Positions 2,893 through 30,522 of a stretch of DNA of 32,000 bases are shown here, piece by piece. Position numbers and translations under genes: made by a program. The stretch's first letter is position 1. The number at the start of each line of letters is the position of its first letter. The notes under the pieces are model-generated. The model did no database searches. It worked only from the letters and a program-made list of their open reading frames with translations, and was not told where the DNA came from. The stretch is from Desulfitobacterium hafniense DCB-2 (GTDB taxonomy: Bacteria > Bacillota > Desulfitobacteriia > Desulfitobacteriales > Desulfitobacteriaceae): assembly GCF_000021925.1 (NCBI RefSeq), contig NC_011830.1, forward strand, positions 5,176,723-5,208,722. The letters run 5' to 3'.

Positions 2893-2897
2893 AAATG

Positions 2898-2969
2898 TGG
2901 CGGGGAGTACGGGAGTTTCACCCGCCTGCACGAATTTAGAGTCCGTGTGATCTATTCGATCCACCCCCC
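2898..2969 (-). tRNA. pylT: tRNA-Pyl (anticodon CUA), CCA encoded
   Basis: The reverse complement reads GGGGGGTGGATCGAATAGATCACACGGACTCTAAATTCGTGCAGGCGGGTGAAACTCCCGTACTCCCCGCCA. It folds with the tRNA-Pyl hallmarks: one base between the acceptor and D stems, a 5-nt D loop without GG, a 6-bp anticodon stem, loop CUCUAAA (anticodon CUA), a 3-nt variable loop, and a T loop UGAAACU lacking TTC. Confidence 0.93.
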
Positions 2970-3114: not shown

Positions 3115-3160
3115 ATACAATACTGCAATTTTTATGCCAAAGGCTCCAAGGAACACAGCA

Positions 3161-4743: not shown

Positions 4744-4758
4744 ACACCTACGTTCTCC

Positions 4759-5688
4759 TTAGGATACAACAATCTGCCTGTTAAGACGCACCCCGCTTGC
4801 CCTTGCTTTAAGAATCTGCTTAATCACATCCGCCAGATGGGCACCGGCCTCGGCCGGCGGAATTCCACCTTTATGAATGTTGGATATTACGGTTCTGTCC
4901 GCTTCCACAGTTGTTTCATCAGGACGATAGATCATGTAAGCGCTGAGACTCTCGGCTGTTCCCAGACCAGGGCGTTCTCCGATTAGGGAAACCACCACAT
5001 CCGCATTCACAAGGCTAGCCACCTGATCTTCAACCCAAACCCGGCCATATCTGACAAAAAAGGGGTCGCCTGTCTTTATGCCTGAGACGGCAAGCCCTTG
5101 GGTTAAGGCAGGCAGGAGGTCGGGAATATTGGCTTCAATAGCGCTGGAACTTAATCCGTCAACGACAATAATCTGCACCTGAATATTTTTTTCACACTTC
5201 TGGGTGATGATTTGGAGCGATTCCTCGGAAAGCCGTCTGCCCAATTCAGGGTGGGTAAGAAATTCTTCTTTATTCCGCGCTGAACTTTGCACGGCAAAGA
5301 GATTCATCCGGCTTAAAAATTCAGGAGAAACATCCGCAAACACAGCATCCTGGGCAACTGCATGGTCGGCCAGAAATTTTAATAAGGAAGCGGTTTTCAT
5401 TCTCGCCCCTGCTCTGCCAATGCCAATCCGGGCCGGGGTCGTTGCTTTCATGGCCTTAATCGCCTCTAAATTAGCCGGTTTAGACACCAACACTTCATCG
5501 GCCGACATAAGCGTGACCATGTCTTCCTGCCCAAGCTCATGGGCAGGAGTATCCTTTAAGCCCTTGGATATCAGGGTCTCCTTTTCCCCAGGAAGATTCT
5601 TTGCAGAAAAAGATGACCCTTCTTTTAACAACTCATCCAGAATGCCTTGTAGTATTCTTTCTAACTCCTTTTCAGCTGTATGCATCAT
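4759..5688 (-). CDS. eutC: Ethanolamine ammonia-lyase small subunit EutC, with an amphipathic N-terminal extension
   Basis: 309 aa and follows eutB by 12 nt. The C-terminal region is typical of EutC (RPGLG..ESLSAY, ISNIH.GG). The N-terminus (EKELERILQGILDELLKEG) resembles a BMC encapsulation peptide. Confidence 0.85.
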   Translation of the reverse strand: MMHTAEKELERILQGILDELLKEGSSFSAKNLPGEKETLISKGLKDTPAHELGQEDMVTLMSADEVLVSKPANLEAIKAMKATTPARIGIGRAGARMKTASLLKFLADHAVAQDAVFADVSPEFLSRMNLFAVQSSARNKEEFLTHPELGRRLSEESLQIITQKCEKNIQVQIIVVDGLSSSAIEANIPDLLPALTQGLAVSGIKTGDPFFVRYGRVWVEDQVASLVNADVVVSLIGERPGLGTAESLSAYMIYRPDETTVEADRTVISNIHKGGIPPAEAGAHLADVIKQILKARASGVRLNRQIVVS

Positions 5689-5700
5689 TCTACCTCCCTT

Positions 5701-7065
5701 CTACTTATCGAAAACAGACGGATCCCCCGCCCGTTCTGTAAGCTGTCCATTCTCCATGATTCCCATCTTCTCCAGCCACTTCTCGAACTCAGGCAAGGGA
5801 CGCAGGCCAAGAATTTCACGGGTTGCGGCATCATCATGATAGCTTGTATCCTGATAGCTGAGCATAACATCGTCCCCTCCGGGAAGACCCATAAAATAAT
5901 TAGCGCCCGCCATAGCGCAGAGCAGCGTGGCAATTTCCTGATCATTTTGATCCGCTTTCATGTGATTGGTGTAACAGGGAGCGATCCCCATAGGCAAACC
6001 ATGGAGCTTACCCATAAACAAATCCTCCAGATCGGCCCGGATGACTTCCCGGCCCGAGTAAATCGTCTCCGGTCCGATAAATCCCGATACATTATTGAGC
6101 AGGAAAGGCCGGTAATGGCGCCCAAATCCATAGGTTCTGGACTCTAAGGTCATCATATCCACACCATGGTGGGCAGCCAGGGAAATCTCCGATCCCTGAC
6201 CTGTCTCGAAGTACATTAAATTCGGCCCGGTGGCTGTTCCGTTGCGCTGGATAAGGGCAAAGGCTTCATCAATAAGCTCCTTGGAGATTCCAAAAGCCTC
6301 ATTGGCCTTTTGGGTTCCTGCTATACTCTGAAAAACAAGATCAATGGGCACCCCTTTAGTGATCGCTTTCATTTGGGTGGTAATATGAGCAAGGACACAA
6401 TTTTGAGTTGGAATCTCCCATTGCTGCATAAATTCTTTGACCGTTTCCAGGAGCCGGGACAGAGTGTCCACATTATCTTCCACAGGATTAATCCCAATTA
6501 CGGCATCCCCCGAGCCATAGGATAGCCCTTCTTTTAAGGACGCCATCACCCCTTCCACTGAATCAGTGGGATGATTGGGCTGGCAGCGGAAGGCTAAAGT
6601 TCCCGGAATGCCGATGGTGGTATTGCAATGGGCCTGATGCCGCATTTTTTTCGAACCATAGACCAGATCCATGTTGGACATCAGTTTGGCAACGGCGGCA
6701 ATCATTTCGCTGGTTAAACCGCGGCTGATGTGATTGAGATGGCTGCCTGTGGTGCCATGATCGAGAATATACTCCCGAAGCTGACCCACTGTCCAACCCT
6801 TCATTTCCTGATAGATCCTTAAGTTAAGCCCATCATAAATCACCCGGGTTACTTCATCCTCTTCATAAGGCAGAACCGGATGGTTATAAAGATCTTCGAG
6901 GGTAAGGTTGCTTAAGACCAGTTTAGCGGCCACTCGTTCCGAAGCGGACGTTGCTCCTATGCCAGCCAAAACATCACCGGATTTCTCCTCATTTGCTTTA
7001 GCCAGAACTTCTTTAAGGTCTTTAAAAGCAAAGACCTTATGATATACCTTCGCCTTCAAAATCAC
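5701..7065 (-). CDS. eutB: Ethanolamine ammonia-lyase large subunit EutB
   Basis: 454 aa and colinear with remembered E. coli EutB (FKDLKEVLAKANEEKSGD, YFETGQGSE, CYTNHM). GTG start with RBS gggaggaagg. The stop is TAG at 5703..5701. Confidence 0.92.
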   Translation of the reverse strand: MILKAKVYHKVFAFKDLKEVLAKANEEKSGDVLAGIGATSASERVAAKLVLSNLTLEDLYNHPVLPYEEDEVTRVIYDGLNLRIYQEMKGWTVGQLREYILDHGTTGSHLNHISRGLTSEMIAAVAKLMSNMDLVYGSKKMRHQAHCNTTIGIPGTLAFRCQPNHPTDSVEGVMASLKEGLSYGSGDAVIGINPVEDNVDTLSRLLETVKEFMQQWEIPTQNCVLAHITTQMKAITKGVPIDLVFQSIAGTQKANEAFGISKELIDEAFALIQRNGTATGPNLMYFETGQGSEISLAAHHGVDMMTLESRTYGFGRHYRPFLLNNVSGFIGPETIYSGREVIRADLEDLFMGKLHGLPMGIAPCYTNHMKADQNDQEIATLLCAMAGANYFMGLPGGDDVMLSYQDTSYHDDAATREILGLRPLPEFEKWLEKMGIMENGQLTERAGDPSVFDK

Positions 7066-7129
7066 GAAGCCTTCCTCCCATCTCTCCTTTAATCGTCAGG
7101 ATTATATAGCCAACAGTCATCCAGCCGGC

Positions 7130-7423
7130 TCACCCTTGGAACGTTTCTTTGTCAATGATCCCGATAACCACAGCATCGATGGGAGCGCGCTGATCCTCCA
7201 GGCTTTGCCGAGCCGATGAGCCGCTGGCGATCATGACAATTTCCGTTTCTCCTGCTCCGATGCGATCGGCTGCAATCAGGGTATTTCCGTATTTCTCAAA
7301 GCGGGGTCTCCCGCTCTCTTCATAAGTTAAGGTCACCGGTTGTACTACAAGGAATTTAAACCCTTTTAAAGCTTCTTCTTTTCGTGTTGACCAGACATTC
7401 CCCAAAACATAGGCCAAGATCAT
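7130..7423 (-). CDS. eutN: BMC vertex (pentamer) protein, EutN/CcmL family
   Basis: 97 aa. Starts MILAYVLGNVWSTRK and has a ...DAVVIGIID C-terminus, both typical of EutN/CcmL. Confidence 0.8.
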   Translation of the reverse strand: MILAYVLGNVWSTRKEEALKGFKFLVVQPVTLTYEESGRPRFEKYGNTLIAADRIGAGETEIVMIASGSSARQSLEDQRAPIDAVVIGIIDKETFQG

Positions 7424-7438
7424 GACTGCTCCTCCGTC

Positions 7439-8140
7439 TTACGCCTTAATTTGTTGCTCACACGCCAAGACATAGAATGCGCTTGACAGGCGATTAAGCG
7501 CCTGAACAAGATCAACCCGGCTGCACTCTCCATTCGTATCCGTAAAGGCCCGGTTAGCGTACAGTTCTACTTCGCGGATTTTAGCCCTGAGTTGGTGGAG
7601 CTTGATGACAGTCCCGCCCTGCTTATAGCTCAGGGGGGAATGTGACACGCCATAATATTGATGGGGATAATGAGAACGTTCCCTGATCTCGTCTGCTGTC
7701 AGTCCCCAAAGGGTTTTAAATTCAAAGGGCTGCCTTTTGACTTCGGCCGCCATAATATTCCGGGCAAATACTGCCACTTCCTCTAACTTTCTGACCAATT
7801 CCAACTCCCCCATGGCCTGAAGGCCTATTTGGGTATCGATCAGCAGGGTTTGAAAAAGATCCAGTTGTCCACGCAGAGCAATGACCGGATGATTTTTGCT
7901 GACCAGTTCATTTTGATATAAATGGGTCATTTGTTCCGGCTTGCCGCCTTTTAAATTAGTTTTTTGGGGTAAAGCCTTTTTAACTGCTGTTCCTGCCTTG
8001 TCTTCCAGTTGAATCTGTATTTGTTTGGAGCGGACAAAATCCCGTGCTAAAGGTGTGAGCACACTCCCCTCCGGAAGTGTGATGATTGTCCCTTTGGTCT
8101 TTTGCCAGATTTCCCGCAGCTCCCTTTCTGTGATGATCAT
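7439..8140 (-). CDS. ATP:cob(I)alamin adenosyltransferase, EutT/PduO-like (COG4812 type)
   Basis: The C-terminal helical bundle carries an ALNRLSSAFYVLA motif like the YLNRLSD.LFVLAR of PduO-type ATRs. The N-terminal LTPLARDFVRSKQI module is seen in eut-associated adenosyltransferases. Position within the eut operon supports the call. Confidence 0.6.
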   Translation of the reverse strand: MIITERELREIWQKTKGTIITLPEGSVLTPLARDFVRSKQIQIQLEDKAGTAVKKALPQKTNLKGGKPEQMTHLYQNELVSKNHPVIALRGQLDLFQTLLIDTQIGLQAMGELELVRKLEEVAVFARNIMAAEVKRQPFEFKTLWGLTADEIRERSHYPHQYYGVSHSPLSYKQGGTVIKLHQLRAKIREVELYANRAFTDTNGECSRVDLVQALNRLSSAFYVLACEQQIKA

Positions 8141-8152
8141 GCCGCCACCCCT

Positions 8153-8800
8153 TTAATATTTCATTCCGTTTTCGGCTACATCGATGACCGCTCGTTGGAA
8201 ATCCTCACAGGCAGCCCGGCAGGCGCTTTGCGTACCCGTCAGCAAGGCACCGCCGAAGTTCGTTTCGGTGGGCGGACCATAAAGCACCTTCATCGCCACA
8301 TCAGCCGCTTTGAGGGCGGCATCTATACCATAGATAGCCTCCAGGGGAGGGGCGATCAAATAGGCAAGGGGTTCACCTTCAGGAATCCCGGCTATTTGGG
8401 AAAGATAGCTCCCCGTACTGGAGATTGTATGAGGAAACCACGCGGTTTTCCCCCCATCATGGCTATAGAAAAAAGCTTCATTTTCCAAATAAGCAATGCA
8501 TGCGTCAATCCCTGCCCGCACATCGGCAGGATTGGCAGCTGCCAGGATGCCGATGACTTCTCCGGAGCGGGGTCCGGAGGCATGGGCCGCCCCCGCATAA
8601 AAGCTCTTGGCATAAACCACGGCGACATCGGCCTTTTTCGTGGCCTCATCCAAAGCAACATAAGTCGAATCGTCTATGTTGCAAGTGATCATGCCTATGG
8701 ATCTTTGATATTGAGCTAAACCGAGCTGGCCGGCCAGTTCCGGTGCTACATTGGGAATTAAACGGGTCGCTAATACCTTGGGTTTAACAGCCTCTATCAT
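8153..8800 (-). CDS. eutL: BMC-T (tandem-domain trimer) shell protein EutL
   Basis: 215 aa. Starts MIEAVKPKVLATRLIPNV..., with ...SIGMITCNIDD and ...VIGILAA, typical of EutL. Confidence 0.85.
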   Translation of the reverse strand: MIEAVKPKVLATRLIPNVAPELAGQLGLAQYQRSIGMITCNIDDSTYVALDEATKKADVAVVYAKSFYAGAAHASGPRSGEVIGILAAANPADVRAGIDACIAYLENEAFFYSHDGGKTAWFPHTISSTGSYLSQIAGIPEGEPLAYLIAPPLEAIYGIDAALKAADVAMKVLYGPPTETNFGGALLTGTQSACRAACEDFQRAVIDVAENGMKY

Positions 8801-8843
8801 CTAAAATCCTCCTTTCTCTACAGTGCTTAATCGCTCATTCGCA

Positions 8844-9287
8844 TTACTTAGTTAAACACTCAATCCTAGTTCTTAGGATCTGGATATTCTTTTTATGGAG
8901 AGCCGAGATCTCATAAAAGGGCTGAGCAATCCCTGCATTGTTCAAGAAAGAGCGGGCAGCTTCTAAATTGGCCTGGGGTAAATCGATCTTAGTGATCACG
9001 CCGATGACCGGTTTACGAAAAACGCGGACAAACTTCGGAGGATAAGTTAAGTAAGTCTTCGTAGCATCCTGCAGCGCCCAAATTTCCGAAACTTGATGGC
9101 TGAGATCGATAATCACATGATAGTAACGGGGAATCTCCAGATACTCCCCAGGACAATCGATAAAAACTTCACTAAAGTTCAGTGCTTGGGTTTTTTGATA
9201 GATCAGGGGCAGATCGCTTAAAGCTTGTTTAAGGGTCGTTTTGCCTGTTCCAACGCCGCCGATCAGCAATATTTTTGAATCATGCAT
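8844..9287 (-). CDS. eutP: EutP/PduV-family P-loop protein
   Basis: 147 aa with P-loop GGVGTGKTT and ITKIDL (an NKxD-like motif). It is the first gene of the eut operon. Confidence 0.8.
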   Translation of the reverse strand: MHDSKILLIGGVGTGKTTLKQALSDLPLIYQKTQALNFSEVFIDCPGEYLEIPRYYHVIIDLSHQVSEIWALQDATKTYLTYPPKFVRVFRKPVIGVITKIDLPQANLEAARSFLNNAGIAQPFYEISALHKKNIQILRTRIECLTK

Positions 9288-9519: not shown

Positions 9520-10434
9520 ATGAGATTGGAACAACTCTATCATCTCGTTGAAGTTGCCAAATATAATTCCATATCCATAGCGGCAGAACGCATCTATATC
9601 ACTCAGCCTGCGGTTAGTGCATCCATCAGCAAGCTTGAAGATGAATTGGGAGTCCTCTTATTTAAGCGGACCACCAAGGGGGCCTACCCAACGGACATTG
9701 GCCAAACCATTATTGAAGCTGCCGAAGAAATACTGCAAAAAGTCGATTTTATTAAAGAGTTGGCCAACACCTCCGCCTTAGCTGGAAATGTCACCATTGC
9801 GACCATCCCCAGTATGTGTGATAAAATCATGCCCCATGTCTTGTCTTTTTTGAAAGAAGCTCATCCAGGCATCAGTGTTTCCCTGCACGTTGGCGAGTCA
9901 ATCCAGGTATTAAACCATATTCAGTCCGGGACGGCGGACATAGGCATCGTTATTATGACTGAAGAAATTCAAGAAAAAAACATTTATTTTGAAAAGCTCT
10001 TCCATGATGAATTTCTCATCTATGTCGGAAAAAACTCTCCTCTTGCCAACAAGCAATCCGTTACTCTCCAAGAGGCCCTTGAATATCCGGTTGTAGCCTA
10101 TAATGATGAATTTTCCAGAAATAACGGAGGCATCACCAGTCTCTTAAAAAAATATTCTTCACCTAAAATTTCATTTCGTTTTGATAACTTCGAAATGATC
10201 AAACGAACCGTTTCCCAAGGAACCTTTATCTCATTTTTCCCTAAGTTTATGTCGAAAAACGATGTCTATCAGTTGTCCCATGAAATTGTTCCCATAGCTA
10301 TTCAAGATGTTACTTTAGATATAACGATTGCTTTAATATGGGCTAAGCGCCACGTCTTTTCTGCCGCTGAGAAGGAATTTATCGCCATTCTTAAATCCTT
10401 TTGTGAAGAAACCATCGTTGAAGACTGTTCTTAA
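9520..10434 (+). CDS. LysR-family transcriptional regulator
   Basis: N-terminal wHTH (SISIAAERIYITQPAVSASISKLEDELGVLLFKR) followed by a substrate-binding domain. Divergent from the eut operon. Confidence 0.9.
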   Translation: MRLEQLYHLVEVAKYNSISIAAERIYITQPAVSASISKLEDELGVLLFKRTTKGAYPTDIGQTIIEAAEEILQKVDFIKELANTSALAGNVTIATIPSMCDKIMPHVLSFLKEAHPGISVSLHVGESIQVLNHIQSGTADIGIVIMTEEIQEKNIYFEKLFHDEFLIYVGKNSPLANKQSVTLQEALEYPVVAYNDEFSRNNGGITSLLKKYSSPKISFRFDNFEMIKRTVSQGTFISFFPKFMSKNDVYQLSHEIVPIAIQDVTLDITIALIWAKRHVFSAAEKEFIAILKSFCEETIVEDCS

Positions 10435-12643: not shown

Positions 12644-14154
12644 ACTCAACTTTCGCACCCCAGTTGAGGGAATAGAGCCTTGATATAACTGGGTAATGCA
12701 GCAATCCACTTTTGTAATTGACTGAGTGATTCGTTATTCTCTGGTTTATTGGGTAGTAGATTAAGAACAAACGTCATTAACTGACGTAGTGCTGTTTTCA
12801 AGTCTAAATCCATAACCTCATCAGCAAAAAGATAAAAGAGTCCCCCAAGAGAGCGTTCATCATTGTTTTCTCTTCGTTCCCACTCCAGGATGAGGTAACG
12901 GGTAAAGACTATGGTTGTGTGACTAACCATCATATCGAAGGATCGGCCCTGAAATTCAGTTCCTAGCTTCAAATGCGATTTGGCCATTTTGAAAAACGTT
13001 TCGATACTCCAACGCATCCCGTAAATTCTTACGACTTCAGTAGTTTCTAAGGAAAGATCGGTGGTTAAGATCGCTAACCACTCTCTTCGGTTGTTTCGAT
13101 TCTGGACGAAAACAACTTTTAAAGCTAAGCCTGAAGGGGTATGAACACGCACTGAACCCAGTATTTCTGCTTTCGGGTTCTTTGGGACTCTCGCGTAGAG
13201 CTCTCGTAAACTGAGTGATTTTCCTTCAAAGAGATAACGCTGCTTAAGTTCTTTAACCATTCCAATAACGTGAAGCTCCTTATCCCTTAGCTTTTGCAAA
13301 AGTGGAGCATGGGTAAACCAACTATCCATTAGGACGTAATCCGCTGAGAATCCGGCTTTGAGAGCTCGTTCAAGCATTTGAACCACGGTGTCCGGTTTAG
13401 GGCTCATCGCTTCCAGGCGACGCTTATAGCCTACGGAGCGTTTGTCTAAGTCCTCTCTCATTTCACAAAGACGATTTTTAGCTTTTGCAGAACTCATCAA
13501 TGTAAAATCAAGGGGTGCGAAGCTGAACCCGTCAGACCAGCCCAAGGTTAGTAAGGTGTAACCGCGAACAAAGCGGCCCGAAACATGGTCAAACACTCGG
13601 GCTAAGAGTTCAACTTTCTTGCTTCGTTCGCGCTCCATTACAGAATCATCTACGATAAAAACACGGATACGCTGCGCAGAGGTGAGCTTTTCAAAGCGTC
13701 CGACCATCTTGAGGCTGAGTAACTGGTAAAAACGCCTCCAGTTATACCGAGAGTCATTGAGAAACCGATAAACAACATCTTTACCTGGAAGAGATTCTGC
13801 CCGGCTTCCTTCTAACAGCCGAAACAGATTTCGACCTTGAAAAACGAGTTGGAAAATGATTTGGAAGACAACGAAGCTTGAAACCCCATAGGACTTGCGG
13901 ATCCCAGCGGCTCGAAGCAGCTGACTAAGCTTAAGGGAAGAAAAAATTAAAGAAAGCTGATTTTGATGCTGTTCAGGCAGAGAGTTGTGTTGTAACATGG
14001 AGATACGCACCTTTCTGTTTTGGAAATTATGGTTGTTTGGTCACTTCCATTTTACCAATTCGAAAGGTGTTTTTCTGTCAATGAACAAAATATTTTTAGC
14101 CTAATCCAGTAGTAGACTGAGTTTGAACAGATTTTCGCGCTGCGAAAGTTGAGT
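12644..14154 (-). mobile_element. Intact IS4-family insertion sequence (1511 bp)
   Basis: 14-bp perfect terminal inverted repeats: actcaactttcgca (12644-12657) and tgcgaaagttgagt (14141-14154). Flanked by ATATA on both sides (12639-12643 and 14155-14159), a possible 5-bp target duplication. One full-length transposase ORF. Confidence 0.8.
12646..14010 (-). CDS. IS4-family DDE transposase
   Basis: 454 aa. Carries the Y-x2-R-x3-E-x6-K signature (YGMRWSIETFFKMAK) and DDE-type blocks (IVDDS; VLMDSWF). Confidence 0.85.
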   Translation of the reverse strand: MRISMLQHNSLPEQHQNQLSLIFSSLKLSQLLRAAGIRKSYGVSSFVVFQIIFQLVFQGRNLFRLLEGSRAESLPGKDVVYRFLNDSRYNWRRFYQLLSLKMVGRFEKLTSAQRIRVFIVDDSVMERERSKKVELLARVFDHVSGRFVRGYTLLTLGWSDGFSFAPLDFTLMSSAKAKNRLCEMREDLDKRSVGYKRRLEAMSPKPDTVVQMLERALKAGFSADYVLMDSWFTHAPLLQKLRDKELHVIGMVKELKQRYLFEGKSLSLRELYARVPKNPKAEILGSVRVHTPSGLALKVVFVQNRNNRREWLAILTTDLSLETTEVVRIYGMRWSIETFFKMAKSHLKLGTEFQGRSFDMMVSHTTIVFTRYLILEWERRENNDERSLGGLFYLFADEVMDLDLKTALRQLMTFVLNLLPNKPENNESLSQLQKWIAALPSYIKALFPQLGCES

Positions 14155-14284: not shown

Positions 14285-14326
14285 AATGAACCACTAAAGG
14301 AAGCCCTGTTCCTTTAGTGGTTCATT
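14285..14326 (-). terminator. Hairpin terminator after mttB
   Basis: 17-bp perfect stem aatgaaccactaaagga / tcctttagtggttcatt with an 8-nt loop, 13 nt after the TAA-TGA double stop. The U-tract is weak (AGGAAAACUUUU). Confidence 0.55.
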
Positions 14327-14338
14327 GTTAAGCAATCA

Positions 14339-15829
14339 TTATATCAATGATCTGGCAACTCCATATTCATCCTCAGTCTCCTCCACGATCGAGCGCAGCG
14401 TGGCCGCTATCTTTTCCGGCAGAGGCTCAGGGGTATAATTCTCCAGTATGGAGATGGCCTCCTCATAGGCCCTTTGGGTGAAGTCTTTGGCCCCGGCAGC
14501 CAGCCAATTCTCCCTCATCGACCGGTCTACGAGCTTGCTCTGGGACTGTGTTCTCATATGGGCATAGGTATGATCTTCGCTAATGAAGTTGCCAGCGGTA
14601 CCTACCGACTTGATAACATCCACTGCGAGGGTCTCGTCCGTAACACTGATCCCACCGACCGCCTTTTTAATCATCCTGGCCATCTCATTATCCATCAGCA
14701 TTTGAGCATAATCAAAGGTGATGCCGAGTTCCAGCATACCGGCGCCATAAATCAGATTGGCACCGGCTAAGGCGGTTAAGAACCCAGTCAGAGTAAATTC
14801 ATGACTTGCCTGGGCATCGGGAATCTTGCTGTCTACCTATCCACCGGCAACCCAGCTGGGCAAATTATAATATTGGGCCAGTTTCGCCACTCCGGCATTG
14901 ATCATGCCCAGTTCAGGGGAACCCACCGGCGCAGTCATATTTTTCATATCCATAATCGTTGTGGAACTGCCGTAGAGAACAGGTGCCCCCTTGCTGGTCA
15001 GCTGGCTGAGCACGATGGCCCCCAGCACCTCACAATTATGAGTAACCAAGGTTCCCGCCAAAGTGATGGCAGACGTCGCTCCGGACATTCCCATCGATAA
15101 CATATTGACCGGAATACCTGCCCGCGCGCCTTCGATAATGACCTCAGAAGCATGATTAACTATCTGCAGGGGACTGGTTGGACAAATATTGCAGGAGAAA
15201 AGGGGCCGTTCCCGCAGCTTATCCTCGCCACCGGCGACGGCCGCCGCCATCTTTAAAACCTTCTTAAAATTGCGCCCGCCTTCAACACCTATAAACACAT
15301 GTTTGGAAGTGTTATTAAAAATGACTTCTGCATTATGCACAACCGCCACACTGGGATGAATATCCTGTGGCGCCACCGGTCTCAGCACCGCATCCATCTG
15401 ATCCATGGCATCACAGAAACGGGTGATATTGGCCACATCCCGCCTTGTGGTTTTCCTATACTCTTTCGTGTAGGGATCAATGATGGAAACACCTTCACCA
15501 AAGTTGATAAACCCAACCCGTTTGCCTCCCAAAACAATATCATTTTTGGGATTTCTCCCCGCCAGCACAAGGGTGCTGGGGGCTGATTGTATGGCATCCT
15601 CCACTAAATATTGGGGAATCTTTACTACCTTCGTTTTAAAATCAACTCTGGCGCCGCCTTCAGAGAAAATCTCCAAGGCTTCCTGGCTTTCGATTTTTAG
15701 TCCTGTATACTCCAAAACTTCAAGGGTACTCGTGTGGATGGCATAGAGTTCTTCATCGGAAAATCCGGCAAGCCCAAAGCCTTCCACCCGGGCAACGCCC
15801 GCCTGAACCATTGATCTCAACCTGGCCAC
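14339..15829 (-). CDS. mttB: Trimethylamine:corrinoid methyltransferase MttB, 496 codons, with an in-frame UAG (pyrrolysine) at codon 331 (14839..14837)
   Basis: Track ORFs 14837..15829 and 14339..14737 are in the same frame. The 33 codons between the TAG and the second ORF's first Met ([33 protein letters not shown]) align with the uninterrupted paralog next door. GTG start behind an AAGGAGG RBS. Confidence 0.88.
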
Positions 15830-15841
15830 CTCCTTAAATTA

Positions 15842-17257
15842 TTAACGTCTAACTTTTTGAATATAGGACTTAAGCATTTTATCCGTTTCCGGATCGAGGA
15901 ACGTCTCAGGAGCATTCCGCAAAATTTCTTTAAATTTGCGGTTAGCTCTCATGCCAATATCCTCCGACCCGGCATTTTCCCAATCCGCGTAGGATTCCCA
16001 GTCTGCCAAAGCCGGGGTCCAAAGGGAGCGGAAATGTTCAAATGTACTCATTTCAACCAAATAATTTCCCGAATGTCCGACACTTTGAATAATATCCACT
16101 GCCAAAGCAGCATCCGACGTATCGATTCCAGCTTTGACCCGCCTGACCCGGCTGATCATCTCTTCATCAATGACAAATTTTTCATAAGATGTGGCCATGA
16201 TGGCATCCAAGACGCCCAGGCTTTGCACTGTCATATGGGCCCCGCTGAGCATCCCCAGCATCAAGCTTTGCATGGTCTCATAACCGGCCTGGCAATCCAA
16301 TACCTTGGCATGGGTAATGCCCGCCATCGTTCTGGTCGGCAAATGGTAATAGTCCAGCCCCATCTGCAAACTGGCCGTATTGATCAGCATGGCTTCAGGT
16401 GCCCCGGCAGCATAGGTTGCCGCCTTCATATAGCCTGTGGTGGAGGCCACGGAATAAACGACAGGCACTCCGGGGTTGATCAACTGGGCCAATACCAAAC
16501 CGGCGAGAATCTCGACATTTTGCAGAACAGCCGTGCCCAGCAGGGTTATGGGGCCGCTCACCCCCGCGATAATACAGGGTGCTAAGAGCAAAACCTGATT
16601 CCGCTTCACATACTCGATCATCGTTTCCAGGGTCTCCGTCCCATACCCCAAAGGACTGAGGGGATTGACCAGCACAGAGGTATAGTGCTTATCAGCAAGA
16701 TTACCGCCTACTGCTATTTCGATCAGATCCAATTGCTCACGAACCTCTTGAGCATTCGCACAAAACCCGATATTCGGTTTATCCGTGTTTTTCAAAATTT
16801 CATACATCATGGCATGATACTTGTCTTTGGGCGCCACATCGCTGGGATCAACCGGAATTGAGCCGACAAGATCAACCACAGGGCTGGCCTGGCAGAGTTT
16901 TTGAATATTAGCGTAATCCTCCAAAGTTGCCTTACGCCGTCCCTGATCCAAATCCTGAATATAAACCGGCCCGACATTAGGCTGCACCAGCATCCCTTCG
17001 CCCACTGTAACTGAATGGCGATCATTTCTGGCCTGCATTCTAAAGCTTTTTGGTGCGGTTTCCAGGGCCTTATCCACCATTGCTTCGGTAATGAATACTG
17101 TTTTGTTTTCTATTTTGGCACCGTGGGTTCGGAAAATATCTAAGGCTTCCTCATTAAGCAAAACCACCCCTGTCTCTCTGAGGATCTTTAATGAGGCCTC
17201 ATGGACCCGCACCAGATCTTCCTGAGACAGTACTTCCAATTTTGATTTAAGTGCCAT
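15842..17257 (-). CDS. MttB-superfamily methyltransferase without pyrrolysine (substrate unknown; quaternary-amine type such as the MtgB class is plausible)
   Basis: 471 aa, colinear with mttB. It has Ile where mttB has UAG (LPTRTMAG-I-THAKVLDCQ versus [20 protein letters not shown]). Confidence 0.8.
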   Translation of the reverse strand: MALKSKLEVLSQEDLVRVHEASLKILRETGVVLLNEEALDIFRTHGAKIENKTVFITEAMVDKALETAPKSFRMQARNDRHSVTVGEGMLVQPNVGPVYIQDLDQGRRKATLEDYANIQKLCQASPVVDLVGSIPVDPSDVAPKDKYHAMMYEILKNTDKPNIGFCANAQEVREQLDLIEIAVGGNLADKHYTSVLVNPLSPLGYGTETLETMIEYVKRNQVLLLAPCIIAGVSGPITLLGTAVLQNVEILAGLVLAQLINPGVPVVYSVASTTGYMKAATYAAGAPEAMLINTASLQMGLDYYHLPTRTMAGITHAKVLDCQAGYETMQSLMLGMLSGAHMTVQSLGVLDAIMATSYEKFVIDEEMISRVRRVKAGIDTSDAALAVDIIQSVGHSGNYLVEMSTFEHFRSLWTPALADWESYADWENAGSEDIGMRANRKFKEILRNAPETFLDPETDKMLKSYIQKVRR

Positions 17258-17283: not shown

Positions 17284-18087
17284 TTAACTGCCTTCATACA
17301 GCCCATTGCGATGGGCCGTCAGGTAGTTCATGCAATAATCATCCTGTCCCAATAAAGCCTGAGCTGCTGCAATCGTCCCCATCATTCCCTTGTCCGTTGG
17401 ATTCAGGATGTAGCCATCCATACCTAAGGTCATGGTTTGCACGACAAACAGGCGATTAAGCACTTTGCGGTTAGGAAGACCAAAAGAAACATTGCTCAAG
17501 CCGCACATAAAGTGAACATCAGGATAGTGGGCTTTTATGGCTTTAATCGTTCCCAGAACTTCCTCTCCGGCGGTATTTACCGTACTGATGGGTTTTACCA
17601 AAGGATCGAAATAGATATCCTGATCCGGTATCCCACTTTCTTTCAACTTCCCATACAGGCTTTCCACCACCCGCATCCGATCCTCGGTTGTTTCCGGCAT
17701 GCCTGTATCATCCATACACAAAGCGACTAATTTGGCTTTGTATTTCTGGGCAAGAGGGAGAACCGCTGCAACCCGCTCCTTCTCATCTGTAATCGAGTTA
17801 ATCATCGGCTGTCCGAACTTGCAAAGGGATAAGCCCGCCTCCAGAGCTTTCGGGTCAGGACTGTCAATACAAAGGGGCGCTTCCACAACCTCCTGGATTG
17901 CATTGACAAGCCACTCCATTATTTCAACTTCGTTATAGACCATCGTGCCGCAGTTCACATCAATGTAATTGGCACCGGATTCTGCCTGTTCCTTAGCAAT
18001 TTTTTGGATATAGGCCTTATCTCTTTTTTCTACTGCTTCGTTAATGGCCTTGCGGCTGGTATTGATCAATTCACCAACAATTAACAC
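17284..18087 (-). CDS. Pterin-binding methylcorrinoid:tetrahydrofolate methyltransferase (MtgA/MtrH-like)
   Basis: 267 aa with a pterin-binding TIM-barrel pattern (GANYIDVN, PLCIDS, MINSI, DPL, GLSNVSFG). GTG start with RBS gaggagg. Confidence 0.8.
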   Translation of the reverse strand: MLIVGELINTSRKAINEAVEKRDKAYIQKIAKEQAESGANYIDVNCGTMVYNEVEIMEWLVNAIQEVVEAPLCIDSPDPKALEAGLSLCKFGQPMINSITDEKERVAAVLPLAQKYKAKLVALCMDDTGMPETTEDRMRVVESLYGKLKESGIPDQDIYFDPLVKPISTVNTAGEEVLGTIKAIKAHYPDVHFMCGLSNVSFGLPNRKVLNRLFVVQTMTLGMDGYILNPTDKGMMGTIAAAQALLGQDDYCMNYLTAHRNGLYEGS

Positions 18088-18106: not shown

Positions 18107-18739
18107 TTAATTCAAAAATCCTTTGGCCATATCTTTGGCGGCCATAGCATCTGCACAGTACCCATCCGCTCCGATTTCATCCGCGAAATTTTGTGAAACA
18201 GGTGCGCCGCCGATCATCACCTTAACCCGATCACGAAGTCCCGCTTCAGCAATCAGATCGATAGTCCCTTTCATGTTCAACATAGTCGTTGTCAGCAGGG
18301 CGGATAAACCGACTACTTGAGCGTTGTGCTCTTGAATGGCTTCAACAAATTTAGCAGGTGATACATCGACACCCAGATCGACCACATTAAAGCCGCCGCT
18401 TTCTAAAATCATGACAACCAAATTTTTGCCAATATCATGCAAGTCTCCTGCTACTGTTCCGATAACGATGGTTTTAGATACCGCCGTTTCTTTCCCCGCG
18501 ATCAAGGGTTTTACTAACTTCATCCCTTCACCCAGAGCGCGGGCACACATCATAACTTCAGGTACATACATCTCTCCCGCCTTGAATTTAGGAGACACAA
18601 TATCCATACCCGCTAAAAGGCCATCCGATATGATCGCAAAAGGATCGGCACCATGATCGAGCATGCTCTGAGTCTTCTCCTTCACCGAAGCGGCATTTCC
18701 CTGGAAAACAAGTTGGGCCAATTGGGCAAAATCACTCAT
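18107..18739 (-). CDS. Corrinoid (B12-binding) protein, MttC/MtgC-like
   Basis: DxHxxG motif (GDLHDIGKNLV), SALLTT and GGAP motifs, and an N-terminal helical cap. The start is set at ATG 18739 (RBS aaagggag 8 nt upstream) rather than the track's TTG at 18745. Confidence 0.88.
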   Translation of the reverse strand: MSDFAQLAQLVFQGNAASVKEKTQSMLDHGADPFAIISDGLLAGMDIVSPKFKAGEMYVPEVMMCARALGEGMKLVKPLIAGKETAVSKTIVIGTVAGDLHDIGKNLVVMILESGGFNVVDLGVDVSPAKFVEAIQEHNAQVVGLSALLTTTMLNMKGTIDLIAEAGLRDRVKVMIGGAPVSQNFADEIGADGYCADAMAAKDMAKGFLN

Positions 18740-18800
18740 TTTCAAAACTCCCTTTCAAAATATTCCCGGAATTCAATATGTTCCGCTATCGATTATATAT

Positions 18801-18816
18801 AGCAAAAATCATGCCA
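18801..18816 (-). promoter_or_regulatory. Sigma-54 (-24/-12) promoter of the methyltransferase operon
   Basis: The minus strand reads TGGCATGATTTTTGCT, which is GG-N10-GC with correct spacing and a near-consensus match to TGGCAC-N5-TTGCW. It lies ~60 nt upstream of the corrinoid-protein ATG. A sigma-54 activator gene is divergent from it. Confidence 0.75.
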
Positions 18817-18997
18817 ACTTGCCAAATCGGGGATATTCGCCACTCCCTGTCCGGATTGCTCCGGCCACTGTACCCATTTCCATTTCTCGCCATAACTTTT
18901 GTGTATACTGGCCAGTAATAATAACTTCTTGACTTATTTTAACAATTCATTCAAACTCAAATTAAGTCAAGAGAACTTAATCACAAAGGAAAGGAGG

Positions 18998-20449
18998 ATG
19001 AGCCTTATCATCGAACATAGAGTACATAGCGATTTTGATTTAGACAAAAGCAAACTGATAAAAATTCTTGAAAATTCTTTTGATGAAATCTTTGTCGTCA
19101 ATAAACACGGTATTGTGATCTATGTTAACGAAGCCTGTCAGAAAAATTATGACTTAAAGCCATCGGACGTCATTGGCAAAACGGTACATTATTTAGTCAG
19201 TGAAGGGTATTATACCCCGGCCATTGCCCCGCTGGTCTTTAAAACCAGAAAAGCCGTCACCCTTGAGCAGGAAACCAAATCCGGCAGGAAACTGCTCGTG
19301 ACCGCTATCCCGGTATTTGATGAAAAAAATGAACTGGATTTTATCGTCATGAATAGTCGCAATATTACGGAAATAGAGCAATTGCGGCAGGATTTAGAAA
19401 AAACAAAGGAGTATTACAAAACTCAAATTCAACAATTACGTCAAAAAGAGCTTTCGAACCAGGATGGATTAGTCTTCCAAAGTGAAAAAATGAGAGAATT
19501 TATGCACACTGCCCAAAGAATAGCTCCCTTTGACACCACTATTTTAATCTTAGGGGAATCAGGAACAGGAAAGAATCTGCTCGCCAAACAAATTCACACC
19601 ATGAGCAACCGCAGGCACGAACCCTATATCTGCATAAATTGCGCAGCTATTCCGGAACAACTGCTGGAGTCTGAACTATTCGGCTATACAAAAGGGGCTT
19701 TTACAGGAGCTGAACGTTCAGGAAAGCCAGGACTGATCGAGCTCGCCCATAAAGGAACTCTCTTTTTGGATGAAATCGGGGAAATTCCTCTATCCCTTCA
19801 AGCAAAGCTTTTACAACTTGTCCAGGACCATACCTTTATACCCATAGGAGGAACGGAATCCAGGCAAGTCGATATTCGCATTATCAGCGCGACGAACTGT
19901 AATTTACCGAAGTTGATTGAACAGGGCCGATTCAGATTAGACCTCTACTATCGGCTAAATGTTATTGAAATTGAGATTCCTCCTGTGCGCGAGCGAAGTG
20001 ACGATATTGTTCTTTTATTGCACTATTTTCTAAATAAATTTGACATCAAATATTCTACATCCCATTATTTCAGCGAGGAATGCCTGGCTGTTTTACAAAA
20101 TTACCAATGGCCTGGAAATGTTCGGGAAATTGAACATTTGGTTGAACGCTTGGTGATTACCGTTTCAGAAAATTGCATTCTCCCTAAGCATTTACCGCTA
20201 CCCAAACATGCTGCTATGCCTGAAGATACTGAAAAAAGTCCTTCCGCTCTAATGAAGACGGCACTTAACAAAGAATTAAGGGATGAATTCACTGAGTATT
20301 CCTTCAAGATTAAAGAAAGAGAAACCATTCTGGAGTTATATGAAGAATTAAGGAGCTCCTATAAAGTTGCCAGCATTTTAAAAATCAGCCAAAGCAAGGT
20401 ATCGCGGATTGTGCGGACTTATTCAGAAAAGAACATGTCAAATTCTTAA
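18998..20449 (+). CDS. Sigma-54-dependent transcriptional activator (PAS sensor - AAA+ - HTH)
   Basis: Walker A GESGTGKN, the GAFTGA motif (KGAFTGAE), ESELFG, Walker B LFLDEIG, and a C-terminal HTH (VASILKISQSKVSRIV). N-terminal PAS-like domain. ATG 18998 is preferred over the track's TTG at 18899. Confidence 0.9.
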   Translation: MSLIIEHRVHSDFDLDKSKLIKILENSFDEIFVVNKHGIVIYVNEACQKNYDLKPSDVIGKTVHYLVSEGYYTPAIAPLVFKTRKAVTLEQETKSGRKLLVTAIPVFDEKNELDFIVMNSRNITEIEQLRQDLEKTKEYYKTQIQQLRQKELSNQDGLVFQSEKMREFMHTAQRIAPFDTTILILGESGTGKNLLAKQIHTMSNRRHEPYICINCAAIPEQLLESELFGYTKGAFTGAERSGKPGLIELAHKGTLFLDEIGEIPLSLQAKLLQLVQDHTFIPIGGTESRQVDIRIISATNCNLPKLIEQGRFRLDLYYRLNVIEIEIPPVRERSDDIVLLLHYFLNKFDIKYSTSHYFSEECLAVLQNYQWPGNVREIEHLVERLVITVSENCILPKHLPLPKHAAMPEDTEKSPSALMKTALNKELRDEFTEYSFKIKERETILELYEELRSSYKVASILKISQSKVSRIVRTYSEKNMSNS

Positions 20450-22978: not shown

Positions 22979-24229
22979 CTATAGCTCACTGAAATCCAAG
23001 GTGGCAAAATAATCCTCCAGTGTTTCCGCCCGGCGGATCAGCTTCACACTGCCATCAGCCTGCAGCAATAACTCAGCATGACGCAGCTTGCCATTGTAGT
23101 TGAAGCCCATGGCATGCCCGTGAGCACCTGTATCATGAATCACCAGAGTATCCCCGATCTCGATTCTGGGCAGTTCCCGGTCCACGGCAAATTTATCGTT
23201 GTTCTCACATAAGCTTCCGGTCACATCATAGATGTGGTCCTCAGGCAGGTCTTCCTTACCCATGACGGTGATATGGTGATAGGCGCCGTAGATTCCCGGG
23301 CGCATCAGATCGGACATGCTGGCATCGACACCGATATAATTTTTATACGTATCCTTGCGATGAAGGACTTTGGTCACCAAATAGCCGTAAGGTCCCGTTA
23401 TCATGCGGCCGCATTCCAGGCAGATGCGCAGGGGATCTAAGCCTTTGGCGACGATCTTCTCTTCGTAAACTTTGCGGACACCTTCTCCGATAGTTTCCAG
23501 ATTGACCGGCTCTTGTTCCGGACGGTAGGGGATGCCGATTCCGCCGCCAAAATTCACAAATTCCAGGCGGATTCCCAGTTTTTCTTTCAGCTCTATGGCC
23601 AGATCAAACATCATCTCTGCTGTCTCGATGAAGAAATCCGGGTTCAGTTCATTGGAGATGATCATAGTATGGAGTCCGAAACGCTTCACCCCTTTGTCAC
23701 GAACGATCTCGTAAGCCTGGAATAACTGTTCCTTGGTCAAACCATATTTGGATTCTTCGGGGTTGCCGATAATGGCATTCCCCGCCCGCAGCGAACCGGG
23801 ATTATAGCGGAAGGAGAGCACCTCCGGCAGGCCGGTATGCTTTTCCAGATAATCAATATGGGTAATATCATCTAAATTGATGATCGCCCATAAATCCTTT
23901 GCTTTTTGAAATTCCTCAGCAGGGGTATTGTTGGAGGTAAGCATAATGTTCTCCTCGGTGATCCCCGCTTTTTCCGCCAGGATCAGTTCCGCCAAAGAAC
24001 TGCAGTCGGCTCCGAAACCCTCTTCCCCCAGGATCTTCAGAATATAGGGATTAGGAAGAGCTTTGACGGCAAAATACTCCTTAAACCCCGGCGCCCAGGC
24101 AAATGCTGCCTGCAGTCTTTGGGCGTTTTTGCGAATGGCTTCCTCATCATAAATATGAAAAGGGGTACCATAGTCCTCCATGATCTTCTGCAACTGCTCT
24201 TGATTAAAAGGTAAGTTTTTTACTGCCAT
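22979..24229 (-). CDS. lysA: Diaminopimelate decarboxylase (PLP-dependent, Orn/DAP/Arg decarboxylase family 2)
   Basis: PLP-Lys context YFAVKALPNP, GGGIGIPY, and CENNDKF near the C-terminus. Preceded by a lysine riboswitch. The stop is TAG. Confidence 0.85.
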   Translation of the reverse strand: MAVKNLPFNQEQLQKIMEDYGTPFHIYDEEAIRKNAQRLQAAFAWAPGFKEYFAVKALPNPYILKILGEEGFGADCSSLAELILAEKAGITEENIMLTSNNTPAEEFQKAKDLWAIINLDDITHIDYLEKHTGLPEVLSFRYNPGSLRAGNAIIGNPEESKYGLTKEQLFQAYEIVRDKGVKRFGLHTMIISNELNPDFFIETAEMMFDLAIELKEKLGIRLEFVNFGGGIGIPYRPEQEPVNLETIGEGVRKVYEEKIVAKGLDPLRICLECGRMITGPYGYLVTKVLHRKDTYKNYIGVDASMSDLMRPGIYGAYHHITVMGKEDLPEDHIYDVTGSLCENNDKFAVDRELPRIEIGDTLVIHDTGAHGHAMGFNYNGKLRHAELLLQADGSVKLIRRAETLEDYFATLDFSEL

Positions 24230-24441: not shown

Positions 24442-24489
24442 AAGGCAAAATCAGCTTAAGCCTCAAACTTCACGAGATAGCACTCCACC

Positions 24490-24645
24490 GGAGTCCCGGT
24501 GACAGTCTTACATTTTTTCAATGGAAGACCAGCTAAGACCCTTTGTCCTGGGCCTTTGCTTCGGCAGCGATTCCTTTCCTTATCCGTCCTAGCCTGACCC
24601 GCTCGGGATAATTACTCTTAATACACTGCGCCTCTATCATTCACT
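24490..24645 (-). promoter_or_regulatory. Lysine riboswitch (L-box)
   Basis: The minus strand contains, in the canonical order, GATAGAGGCGC, AAGAGTA, GGAAAGG, CGCTGCCGAAG, AGCTGG and AGACTGTCAC. This closely parallels the remembered B. subtilis lysC leader (GTCGCCGAAGCAAA...GCTGG...AATGTAAGGCTGTCA). Confidence 0.85.
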
Positions 24646-30304: not shown

Positions 30305-30465
30305 TACGGGAGAAGGGCACGGCCCGCCGAAGAAGTTGAAACTTTCAGGTGACTGGAATAAGTCAGGGACCGTAAATTGACAGCACTCTGGAGAGACTCG
30401 ATTAGAGCGCCGAAGGGGCAATACAATGACGTGTTGTTAAATCTCTCAGGCAAAAGGACAGAGAA
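30305..30465 (+). promoter_or_regulatory. Tandem glycine riboswitch
   Basis: Aptamer 1: CGGGAGAA...CCCGCCGAAGAAG...CAGG...GGACCG. Aptamer 2: CTCTGGAGAG...GCGCCGAAGGGGCAA...CTCTCAGGCAAAAGGACAGAG. Followed by a terminator and a glycine/alanine symporter gene. Confidence 0.85.
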
Positions 30466-30522
30466 GGAACAGGGACTGCTACAGAGCAATCTCTTACTTT
30501 TGTACCTATCGTCCGAATATTC

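Follow-up and report, generated by a model that had tools for sequence, protein, structure and literature searches.

The discovery of the pyl genes came with the textbook bacterial example, the trimethylamine methyltransferase gene of Desulfitobacterium hafniense. The solved archaeal counterpart of this methyltransferase is the MttB of Methanosarcina barkeri (PDB 7XCL, 7XCM, and 7XCN), which carries pyrrolysine at position 334 (Pyl334). Work on that enzyme has shown that Tyr364 is 100% conserved and catalytically important, that Gly110 and Tyr364 are fully conserved among pyrrolysine-containing MttBs, and that these two residues and Met249 have defined roles (PMC9842639). In bacteria, pyrrolysine enters the MttB of Acetohalobium during growth on trimethylamine, and in Acetohalobium arabaticum decoding of the UAG of the Pyl-MttB requires expression of the pyl operon (PMC11467909). 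D. hafniense is known to possess a functional PylRS (PMC1851642), together with MtgB (DSY3156; PDB 2QNE and 9YCE), a protein of the same superfamily and fold as Pyl-MttB that operates within the same B, C, A three-component architecture. Unlike Pyl-MttB, MtgB is a glycine betaine methyltransferase that acts on a quaternary amine and contains neither a UAG codon nor pyrrolysine.

The gene analysed here is the long-known, single pyrrolysine-containing MttB homolog of D. hafniense, in the literature since 2002–2007, and its recognition is a re-discovery of something already known. The pair DSY4970 and DSY4969 of strain Y51, and the pair EHL05219.1 and EHL05220.1 of strain DP7, are the same gene, with strain-level differences only. 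Specifically, the C-terminal ORF matches DSY4969 (BAE86758.1) without a difference, the N-terminal ORF and DSY4970 share a 90% cluster, and CDX05129.1 of D. hafniense has the exact sequence of the N-terminal half. In public records the gene continues to appear as two truncated ORFs; DSY4970/DSY4969 and a large number of 327-aa “trimethylamine methyltransferase” entries are examples. The gene itself brings no new biology; its main value is as a quality check, in that genuine recoding was recognised from raw sequence.

Anatomy of the Recoded Gene

The window (i.e., the whole 32,000-nucleotide stretch of D. hafniense DCB-2 DNA that was analysed) contains two minus-strand ORFs, 14837..15829 and 14339..14737, that occupy one frame and are split by a single TAG at 14839..14837. 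Past the TAG, the frame continues through 33 codons to ATG 14737, which opens the second ORF, and its translation ends ...GVARSLI. The features of the gene are as follows:

14339..15820, minus strand: recoded mttB coding sequence, complete, with a TTG start and 493 codons including one UAG, then TAA
14837..14839, minus strand: in-frame TAG (UAG), the pyrrolysine codon; residue 328 from TTG 15820, codon 331 from GTG 15829
14738..14836, minus strand: 33 bridging codons outside both mechanical ORFs, including Tyr358 (M. barkeri Tyr364)
15829..15835, minus strand: Shine-Dalgarno sequence AAGGAGG, 8 nt upstream of TTG 15820, by direct reading
14336..14341, minus strand: tandem stops at the gene end (TAA 14341..14339, TGA 14338..14336), by direct reading
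14285..14326, minus strand: 18-bp perfect stem with a 6-nt loop, 3' of the stops (-26.3 kcal/mol, z = -6.3)

Translation probably begins at TTG 15820 rather than at the alternative in-frame GTG 15829, because the latter overlaps the ribosome-binding site (AAGGAGG, 15835..15829) and database homologs are 327 aa long up to the TAG; counted from the TTG, the protein has 493 aa and carries pyrrolysine at residue 328. The initial annotation had proposed that the two ORFs form one mttB gene recoded through UAG, with 33 bridging codons that belong to neither ORF. The first proposal stands on the single frame, on one MTTB match that spans the TAG, and on the TAG of nine orthologs, and the bridging codons are borne out by translation. 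The accompanying numbering (a 330-aa N-terminal ORF with the TAG as codon 331) is correct as counted from GTG 15829, but becomes 327 aa and residue 328 from the likelier TTG. Likewise, TAA followed by TGA was read correctly, although the stem of the hairpin beyond measures 18 bp and not 17. This hairpin was also considered as a textbook intrinsic terminator and rejected, as the stem is followed by no T-run and a terminator consensus scan made no call.

Family Membership and Active Site

The read-through product scores 740.8 bits against the NCBIfam trimeth_pyl equivalog TIGR02369 (cut-off 525), covering profile positions 2-469 of 469. Similarly, Pfam MTTB (PF06253) gives one match of 336.7 bits that extends across the TAG over residues 23-489, so that the region after the TAG is both homologous to the family and in frame, as had been anticipated. 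Bit scores of the protein are 423 to Pyl-MttB versus 244 to MtgB.

Identity to the M. barkeri enzyme is 47% over 482 residues, the alignment contains no large gaps, and the motif AG(G/S)-Pyl-xD(S/A)KxPD is present in both proteins. The UAG position, initially described as close to Pyl334, aligns exactly with residue 334, which is X in 7XCL and K in the 7XCM sequence, while G108, M243, and Y358 align with M. barkeri Gly110, Met249, and Tyr364, respectively. Differences between the two systems are also apparent: Thr111 of M. barkeri is Glu in D. hafniense, the D. hafniense host is bacterial, its methyl group would be expected to pass to tetrahydrofolate through a pterin-binding methyltransferase and not to coenzyme M, and its operon additionally contains a non-pyrrolysine paralog.

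With high confidence, 14339..15820 (minus strand) is a single gene, D. hafniense mttB, for a trimethylamine:corrinoid methyltransferase of the pyrrolysine type. We infer that pyrrolysine is inserted in vivo, that trimethylamine is the substrate, and that the gene is regulated as outlined below; in the searchable literature, no protein-level evidence was found of the full-length pyrrolysine protein or of trimethylamine use in D. hafniense.

Conservation of the In-Frame TAG

Nine ortholog loci (L001-L009) were compared, comprising Acididesulfobacillus, five Desulfosporosinus, two metagenome bins, and one near-identical Logan contig (L009). L001-L008 are GTDB genome loci, and a genome-collection scan returned no Desulfitobacterium locus. 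The TAG is found at codon 328 in all nine orthologs, which are 77-99% identical at the protein level and come from three or more genera. For the eight diverged ones, nonsynonymous differences amount to 0.11-0.14 per site before the TAG and 0.10-0.15 after it, while synonymous differences are saturated at 0.73-0.86 per site; proportions of differences are given here in place of dN/dS, as saturated synonymous sites leave dS undefined. Because nonsynonymous divergence downstream of the TAG equals that upstream while synonymous sites are saturated, the downstream part is, to judge from these substitution patterns, translated and under selection, with equal constraint on both sides.

The Pyrrolysine Machinery and the PYLIS Match

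Genes for the synthesis and charging of pyrrolysine lie at one end of the window:

2898..2969, minus strand: pylT, tRNA-Pyl with anticodon CUA (ARAGORN)
2026..2892, minus strand: pylSc, catalytic subunit of pyrrolysyl-tRNA synthetase, 288 aa from ATG 2892 (TIGR02367, 434.6 bits)
826..1950, minus strand: pylB, methylornithine synthase (TIGR03910, 599.5 bits, cut-off 348)
1..823, minus strand: 5' part of a gene in the pylC position that runs off the window, assigned by position and reading only (open frame IIGGKLQGVEAAYLAKKAGWDVVLFD...)

The order on the minus strand is pylT, PylSc, PylB, and then, directly after pylB, the putative partial PylC. The mechanical ORF of pylSc extends to 2964 and overlaps pylT, and the PylSc protein is ~99% identical to the D. 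hafniense PylSc structures 2ZNI and 3DSQ. From pylT to the TAG the distance is 11.9 kb on the same strand, in agreement with the ~12 kb noted initially for the pyl genes, of which pylT, PylSc, and PylB were found and pylC is a putative assignment. The window edge cuts the cluster, with pylD and pylSn beyond it; both have been reported for D. hafniense (PMC11467909, PMC1851642).

Within the window, TAG is also the stop codon of four other genes, pylB included. Termination at codon 328 must, by this reading, compete with pyrrolysine insertion, and a truncated 36-kDa product is to be expected whenever the pyl genes are off.

The UAG also marks the beginning of a match to a described RNA element:

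14740..14839, minus strand: Rfam RF02510 PYLIS_3 (pyrrolysine insertion sequence, mttB), beginning at the UAG

The match covers the complete model (positions 1-100 of 100) and scores 95.2 bits, where the gathering threshold of the family is 38. However, covariation is absent: RNAalifold on seven orthologs found compensatory changes in none of 25 pairs, with an unfavourable covariation term (+0.74), and the match therefore reflects conservation of the coding sequence. Downstream of the UAG, the local fold surpasses shuffled sequences in stability only marginally (z = -2.1), and with that fold and no compensatory pairs, a structural recoding signal 3' of the UAG was rejected. The lack of a supported PYLIS structure agrees with earlier work (PMC3639795, PMC1976440), and recoding of the UAG would need no dedicated RNA structure.

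The mtt Operon and Its Putative Regulation

Upstream of the recoded gene, the operon and its surroundings contain the following features, with the second promoter site located near pylT:

15842..17257, minus strand: adjacent non-pyrrolysine MttB-superfamily paralog, 471 aa (Pfam MTTB)
17284..18087, minus strand: pterin-binding methylcorrinoid:tetrahydrofolate methyltransferase, MtgA/MthA-like (Pfam Pterin_bind; NF005719, 388.8 bits, cut-off 259)
18107..18745, minus strand: corrinoid (B12-binding) protein, MttC/MtgC-like (Pfam B12-binding, B12-binding_2)
18801..18816, minus strand: sigma-54 promoter consensus TGGCATGATTTTTGCT, upstream of the corrinoid/methyltransferase/non-Pyl mttB/Pyl-mttB operon
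18899..20449, plus strand: divergent PAS-domain sigma-54 enhancer-binding protein (Pfam Sigma54_activat, PAS_9), syntenic in L003-L009
3124..3139, minus strand: second sigma-54 promoter consensus TGGCATAAAAATTGCA, ~155 nt upstream of pylT

The paralog scores 343 bits against TIGR02369, below the cut-off of 525, is 30% identical to Pyl-MttB, and has Ile at the pyrrolysine position and Gln at that of Tyr364; its best relative among solved structures is MtgB (2QNE). Synteny between the paralog and Pyl-mttB holds for seven of the eight GTDB genome loci (L001, L003-L008) and for L009, and the paralog is 70-73% identical across genera. Each locus with the pair has one corrinoid protein gene beside the two mttB genes. 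A pterin methyltransferase gene accompanies the pair only in L001, L003, and L009, being absent from this position in the five Desulfosporosinus loci, and a phosphodiesterase-family gene is kept downstream of the pair in L004-L009. The corrinoid protein, which scores 208.6 bits against TIGR02370 (pyl_corrinoid) and narrowly misses the cut-off of 215.3, is a candidate for the cognate methyl carrier of Pyl-MttB.

A pattern search for the sigma-54 consensus returned two exact matches in the window versus 0.11 expected, one before each of the pyl and mtt operons, and the enhancer-binding protein at 18899..20449 is a candidate activator of the latter. By strict pattern, a site upstream of the operon was found only in L009 and L003, and none in the Desulfosporosinus or Acididesulfobacillus loci. 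Upstream of both promoters, a search for common words of at least 9 nt found none, i.e., no shared activator-binding motif. We infer that the pyl and mtt operons are co-regulated, and the paired sites suggest conditional control comparable to that of Acetohalobium, although in D. hafniense, unlike A. arabaticum, regulation is read solely from promoter consensus sites. These sites are the sole forward-looking element of the locus, and offer a concrete, testable handle on an old question, namely how pyrrolysine insertion is confined to the right time in a bacterium for which UAG is a normal stop codon.

Alternative Explanations

A gene interrupted by a stop codon may simply be dead, with a TAG that arose as an error in sequencing or by recent nonsense mutation of, e.g., TGG (Trp), which lies one base from TAG. 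GenBank records do show two separate ORFs, and at the pyrrolysine position the nearest homologs without an interruption (up to 61% identity) have Trp, Ala, Val, or Ile. Set against this are the TAG that nine orthologs of three or more genera share at this codon, the equal nonsynonymous divergence on its two sides in the eight diverged orthologs with synonymous sites saturated, the exact sequence found on 22 contigs from independent assemblies, and the linked machinery (pylT, PylSc, PylB). The conservation data exclude the sequencing error considered in the initial annotation, and effectively refute the notion of a pseudogene as a whole, to which we attach next to no probability. Only slightly more credible, and still highly improbable, is the manufacture of a split enzyme, in which an N-terminal product of 327 aa and the product of the C-terminal ORF (132 aa) would be made separately and assemble without decoding of the UAG. 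Each piece is indeed an open ORF, with an ATG at the start of the second, but no Shine-Dalgarno sequence precedes ATG 14737, where the upstream sequence reads ...TTTATGGCGCCGGT. Furthermore, the 33 codons from TAG to ATG are kept as protein in all orthologs and hold both the Tyr364 equivalent and the pyrrolysine-flanking motif xDSKxPD, and the catalytic pyrrolysine itself would be missing from such an enzyme.

An explanation of a different kind accepts that the UAG is decoded as pyrrolysine and disputes only the substrate, which would be another tertiary amine made by the non-pyrrolysine paralog, such that one quaternary amine is demethylated in two steps with a shared corrinoid protein and methyl-tetrahydrofolate methyltransferase. 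This proposal draws on the synteny described above (the adjoining paralog with one corrinoid gene in each locus, the pterin methyltransferase alongside in L001, L003, and L009 only, and the conserved downstream phosphodiesterase-family gene), on related non-pyrrolysine enzymes that act on quaternary amines, including phosphocholine (PMC12155760), and on the finding of no report, in the literature searched, of D. hafniense growing on trimethylamine. However, the protein passes the cut-off of the NCBIfam trimethylamine methyltransferase equivalog, all of the active-site residues named for the M. barkeri enzyme are kept, and synteny by itself defines no substrate; we therefore regard another substrate as unlikely. 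A broader proposal for D. hafniense and its relatives, in which genetic-code expansion and the sole gene it serves belong to one sigma-54 regulon with the PAS activator driving both pylT-pylSc-pylBCD and the mtt operon, the two adjacent MttBs strip successive methyls from one quaternary amine, and the pyrrolysine enzyme takes the tertiary-amine product and not free environmental trimethylamine, is a speculative one that we would likewise expect to be wrong. The preferred reading remains that of a pyrrolysine-type trimethylamine methyltransferase made by read-through of the UAG.

Proposed Mechanism

In the preferred reading, PylSc would charge the tRNA encoded by pylT with pyrrolysine made by PylB, PylC, and PylD, and the resulting Pyl-tRNA(CUA) would insert pyrrolysine at UAG codon 328 in competition with release factor 1. 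Translation of 165 further codons to the TAA-TGA tandem stop would yield a ~54 kDa protein with a TIM-barrel fold. The pyrroline ring of Pyl328 may, as in the solved M. barkeri enzyme, bind and activate the amine, helped by Tyr358 and the backbone carbonyl of Gly108. The corrinoid protein encoded two genes upstream, in its Co(I) form, would then accept the methyl group, which the pterin-binding methyltransferase of the same operon would transfer on to tetrahydrofolate. As UAG is an ordinary stop for this organism's other genes, specificity would most likely come from the timing of pyl expression.

Nothing in the sequence speaks against recoding. An IS4-family insertion is located 185 nt downstream of Pyl-mttB in the DCB-2 window, and this insertion is absent in a 97%-identical relative.

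Anatomy and identity of the recoded mttB gene

On the minus strand, the reading frame from GTG 15829 meets TAG at 14839..14837 and continues in the same frame through 33 bridging codons to ATG 14737 of the mechanical ORF 14339..14737, ending in ...GVARSLI, TAA, and then TGA. The initial annotation had read the two ORFs as one mttB gene recoded through an in-frame UAG; its coordinates all proved correct when rechecked, and direct reading and translation bore out the single frame, the bridging codons, and the paired stops. Its count of 331 for the UAG codon holds from GTG 15829 but not from the likelier start. The GTG falls within the Shine-Dalgarno sequence AAGGAGG (15835..15829, minus strand), TTG 15820 lies 8 nt downstream of that sequence, and database homologs have 327 residues up to the TAG; the product therefore likely starts at TTG 15820 and comprises 493 residues, the UAG being codon 328. 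A hairpin does follow the stop codons, with a perfect stem of 18 bp rather than the 17 bp first reported (14326..14285; -26.3 kcal/mol, z = -6.3); no T-run comes after it, and a terminator scan gives no call there.

Translated with X for the TAG, the product yields a single unbroken Pfam MTTB match (residues 23-489, E = 2e-100), and is thus homologous to the family and in frame across the TAG, as had been proposed. TIGR02369 (trimeth_pyl), the NCBIfam equivalog for '[trimethylamine--corrinoid protein] Co-methyltransferase', is covered over its whole profile at 740.8 bits (curated cut-off 525), while the neighboring non-Pyl paralog scores 343 bits, below the cut-off. The product's closest match with a solved structure is Methanosarcina barkeri MttB (7XCL/7XCM; E = 1e-125; 47% identity over 482 residues), and the TAG, previously placed near Pyl334, aligns exactly with X334 of that chain. 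Gly110 and Tyr364 are 100% conserved among Pyl-MttBs, the Y364F substitution reduces Vmax roughly 28-fold, from 48 to 1.7 turnovers per minute, and Met249 lines the substrate pocket (PMC9842639). These residues align with Gly108, Tyr358, and Met243 of the D. hafniense product, Tyr358 being encoded within the bridging codons and hence in neither mechanical ORF. The observation is confirmed, and the recoding interpretation is supported by family matches, TAG conservation in orthologs, and linked pyl genes.

The closest uninterrupted full-length homologs (e.g., homologs P0003, P0009, and P0023; 45-61% identity) place a sense residue where Pyl would stand, in a shared motif, PSWVAGG-x-xDSK. Trp is the commonest residue there (11 of the 48 homologs whose Pyl-site motif matched the search pattern). 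TGG and TAG differ by one base, and this comparison hints that Pyl-to-Trp or Trp-to-Pyl switches have occurred repeatedly in the clade.

Conservation of the TAG

A scan of the genome collection recovered eight orthologous loci with 77-81% protein identity, from Acididesulfobacillus acetoxydans, five Desulfosporosinus species, and two Bacillota metagenome bins; a ninth, 97%-identical ortholog came from a Logan contig (L009). The TAG stands at codon 328 in all nine, followed by an in-frame continuation to a stop some 163-165 codons further. Comparison with the eight diverged orthologs shows saturation at synonymous sites (0.73-0.86 differences per synonymous site); at nonsynonymous sites it gives 0.11-0.14 differences per site for the part preceding the TAG and 0.10-0.15 for the part following it, indicating the same protein-level constraint downstream as upstream. 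Retention of the TAG under such constraint means that it is neither a sequencing error nor the product of a recent nonsense mutation, and that the gene is not a pseudogene. A split enzyme, made as two separately translated polypeptides, is unlikely: ATG 14737 has no ribosome-binding site upstream, the bridging codons show protein-level conservation, and such an enzyme would be devoid of the catalytic residue.

Pyrrolysine genes and previous records

The pyl genes were found on the same strand as the recoded Pyl-mttB, as the initial annotation had stated:

2898..2969, minus strand, tRNA-Pyl (pylT), anticodon CUA (ARAGORN)
2026..2964 (mechanical ORF; true start ATG 2892), minus strand, pylSc, directly downstream of pylT (TIGR02367, 434.6 bits)
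After pylSc, minus strand, pylB (TIGR03910, 599.5 bits)
After pylB, running off the window, minus strand, putative pylC (open frame in the pylC position)

The mechanical pylSc ORF opens at a GTG inside pylT, and this overlap places the true start at ATG 2892, five nucleotides past the end of the tRNA gene and corresponding to residue 1 of PDB 3DSQ. The encoded protein differs at two positions from crystallized D. hafniense PylSc (2ZNI, 3DSQ). Both pylD and pylSn lie beyond the window.

The reading of Pyl-mttB in D. hafniense as a recoded gene is right, but the case was known before. NCBIfam and Rfam have models dedicated to the gene, which recognize it, reviews routinely depict the pyl cluster of this species (PMC11467909), and the 327-residue N-terminal product is identical to CDX05129.1, 'Trimethylamine methyltransferase I MttB [Desulfitobacterium hafniense]'. 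Strain Y51 has the halves annotated apart: DSY4970, a 'hypothetical protein' of 330 aa, and DSY4969, of 132 aa. The searchable literature yielded no data at protein level showing that D. hafniense inserts Pyl or uses trimethylamine.

The mtt operon and its neighborhood

Other features of the window are the following:

18107..18745, corrinoid protein gene
17284..18087, pterin-binding methyltransferase gene
15842..17257, minus strand, non-Pyl MttB paralog (30% identity to the Pyl-mttB product)
12645..14153, IS4-family element, with a minus-strand transposase ORF at 12646..14010 (NF049925, 582 bits)
3259..9287, minus strand, complete-looking ethanolamine utilization cluster between the pyl genes and the mtt operon (eutP, BMC shell protein, cobalamin adenosyltransferase, eutN, eutB, eutC, eutA)
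9520..10434, plus strand, LysR-type regulator gene
22979..24229, PLP-dependent decarboxylase gene, lysA-like
24470..24644, minus strand, lysine riboswitch (114.8 bits), upstream of the lysA-like gene
30378..30471, plus strand, glycine riboswitch aptamer (62.3 bits)

Pyl-tRNA(CUA) would insert Pyl at the UAG in competition with release factor; judging from family membership and operon structure, Pyl-MttB would then methylate the corrinoid protein, and the pterin-binding methyltransferase would hand the methyl group to tetrahydrofolate.

The non-Pyl paralog, with Ile at the Pyl position and Gln at that of Tyr364, lies beside Pyl-mttB in seven of the eight GTDB genome loci (L001, L003-L008) and in L009, a pairing seen in Desulfitobacterium, Desulfosporosinus, Acididesulfobacillus, and one metagenome bin. 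Between genera the paralog retains 70-73% identity, and one corrinoid protein gene accompanies the pair. On the basis of this conserved pairing, the two enzymes could conceivably perform a two-step demethylation of one quaternary amine, a reading of low probability since the Pyl enzyme agrees with a trimethylamine methyltransferase at every point that could be tested. A Type I phosphodiesterase-family gene often follows the pair and is conserved in Desulfosporosinus and Desulfitobacterium.

The IS4-family element sits 185 nt downstream of Pyl-mttB, bounded by 13-bp terminal inverted repeats (CTCAACTTTCGCA / TGCGAAAGTTGAG) with TATATAA on both flanks. It is missing from the 97%-identical L009, where mttB directly precedes the phosphodiesterase-family gene.

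Decoding of UAG and its use as a stop

Rfam PYLIS_3 (RF02510, 'Pyrrolysine insertion sequence mttB'; gathering score 38) matches 14839..14740 at 95.2 bits, starting at the UAG. A structural recoding signal was nevertheless rejected, as the region 3' of the UAG shows only a marginal gain in folding over shuffled sequence (z = -2.1) and the consensus fold of seven orthologs contains no compensatory pair, its covariation term being unfavorable. Likewise, published analyses have not found a common structure for mttB (PMC3639795; PMC1976440). The match is thus a nucleotide signature of coding sequence. Pyl-tRNA(CUA) and release factor compete at UAG, making a dedicated cis element unnecessary (PMC11467909; PMC1851642).

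UAG often serves as a stop in D. hafniense (PMC1976440), and within the window TAG normally terminates at least four further genes: pylB, eutB, the gene for the lysA-like decarboxylase, and an ORF of 222 aa. The timing of pyl gene expression is therefore the most likely source of specificity, as has been shown for Acetohalobium arabaticum (PMC11467909). The strict sigma-54 promoter pattern, TGGCAY-N5-TTGCW, has exactly two matches in the 32-kb window against 0.11 expected, a count reached in 0 of 100 shuffles:

18801..18816, minus strand, sigma-54 consensus site upstream of the mtt operon, which comprises the corrinoid protein, pterin-binding methyltransferase, non-Pyl mttB, and Pyl-mttB genes
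18899..20449, divergent, PAS-domain sigma-54 activator gene facing that site
3124..3139, minus strand, sigma-54 consensus site ~155 nt upstream of pylT

Sites before both pylT and the mtt operon suggest that the Pyl machinery and Pyl-mttB may be induced together. This lead is not established, since no shared motif was found upstream of the two promoters and L009 and L003 are the only relatives in which the strict pattern is seen again.

The stop of pylB, a gene needed for pyrrolysine synthesis, is itself a TAG (826..828, minus strand); read-through there would append 14 residues (GSLAASSRVLKLLI). The TAG of eutB (5701..5703, minus strand) is followed in the same frame, four codons on (KGGR), by eutC (4759..5688, minus strand), and Pyl decoding would give an EutB-EutC fusion. 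The KGGR codons are the eutC ribosome-binding site, and the match of frames is probably a coincidence.
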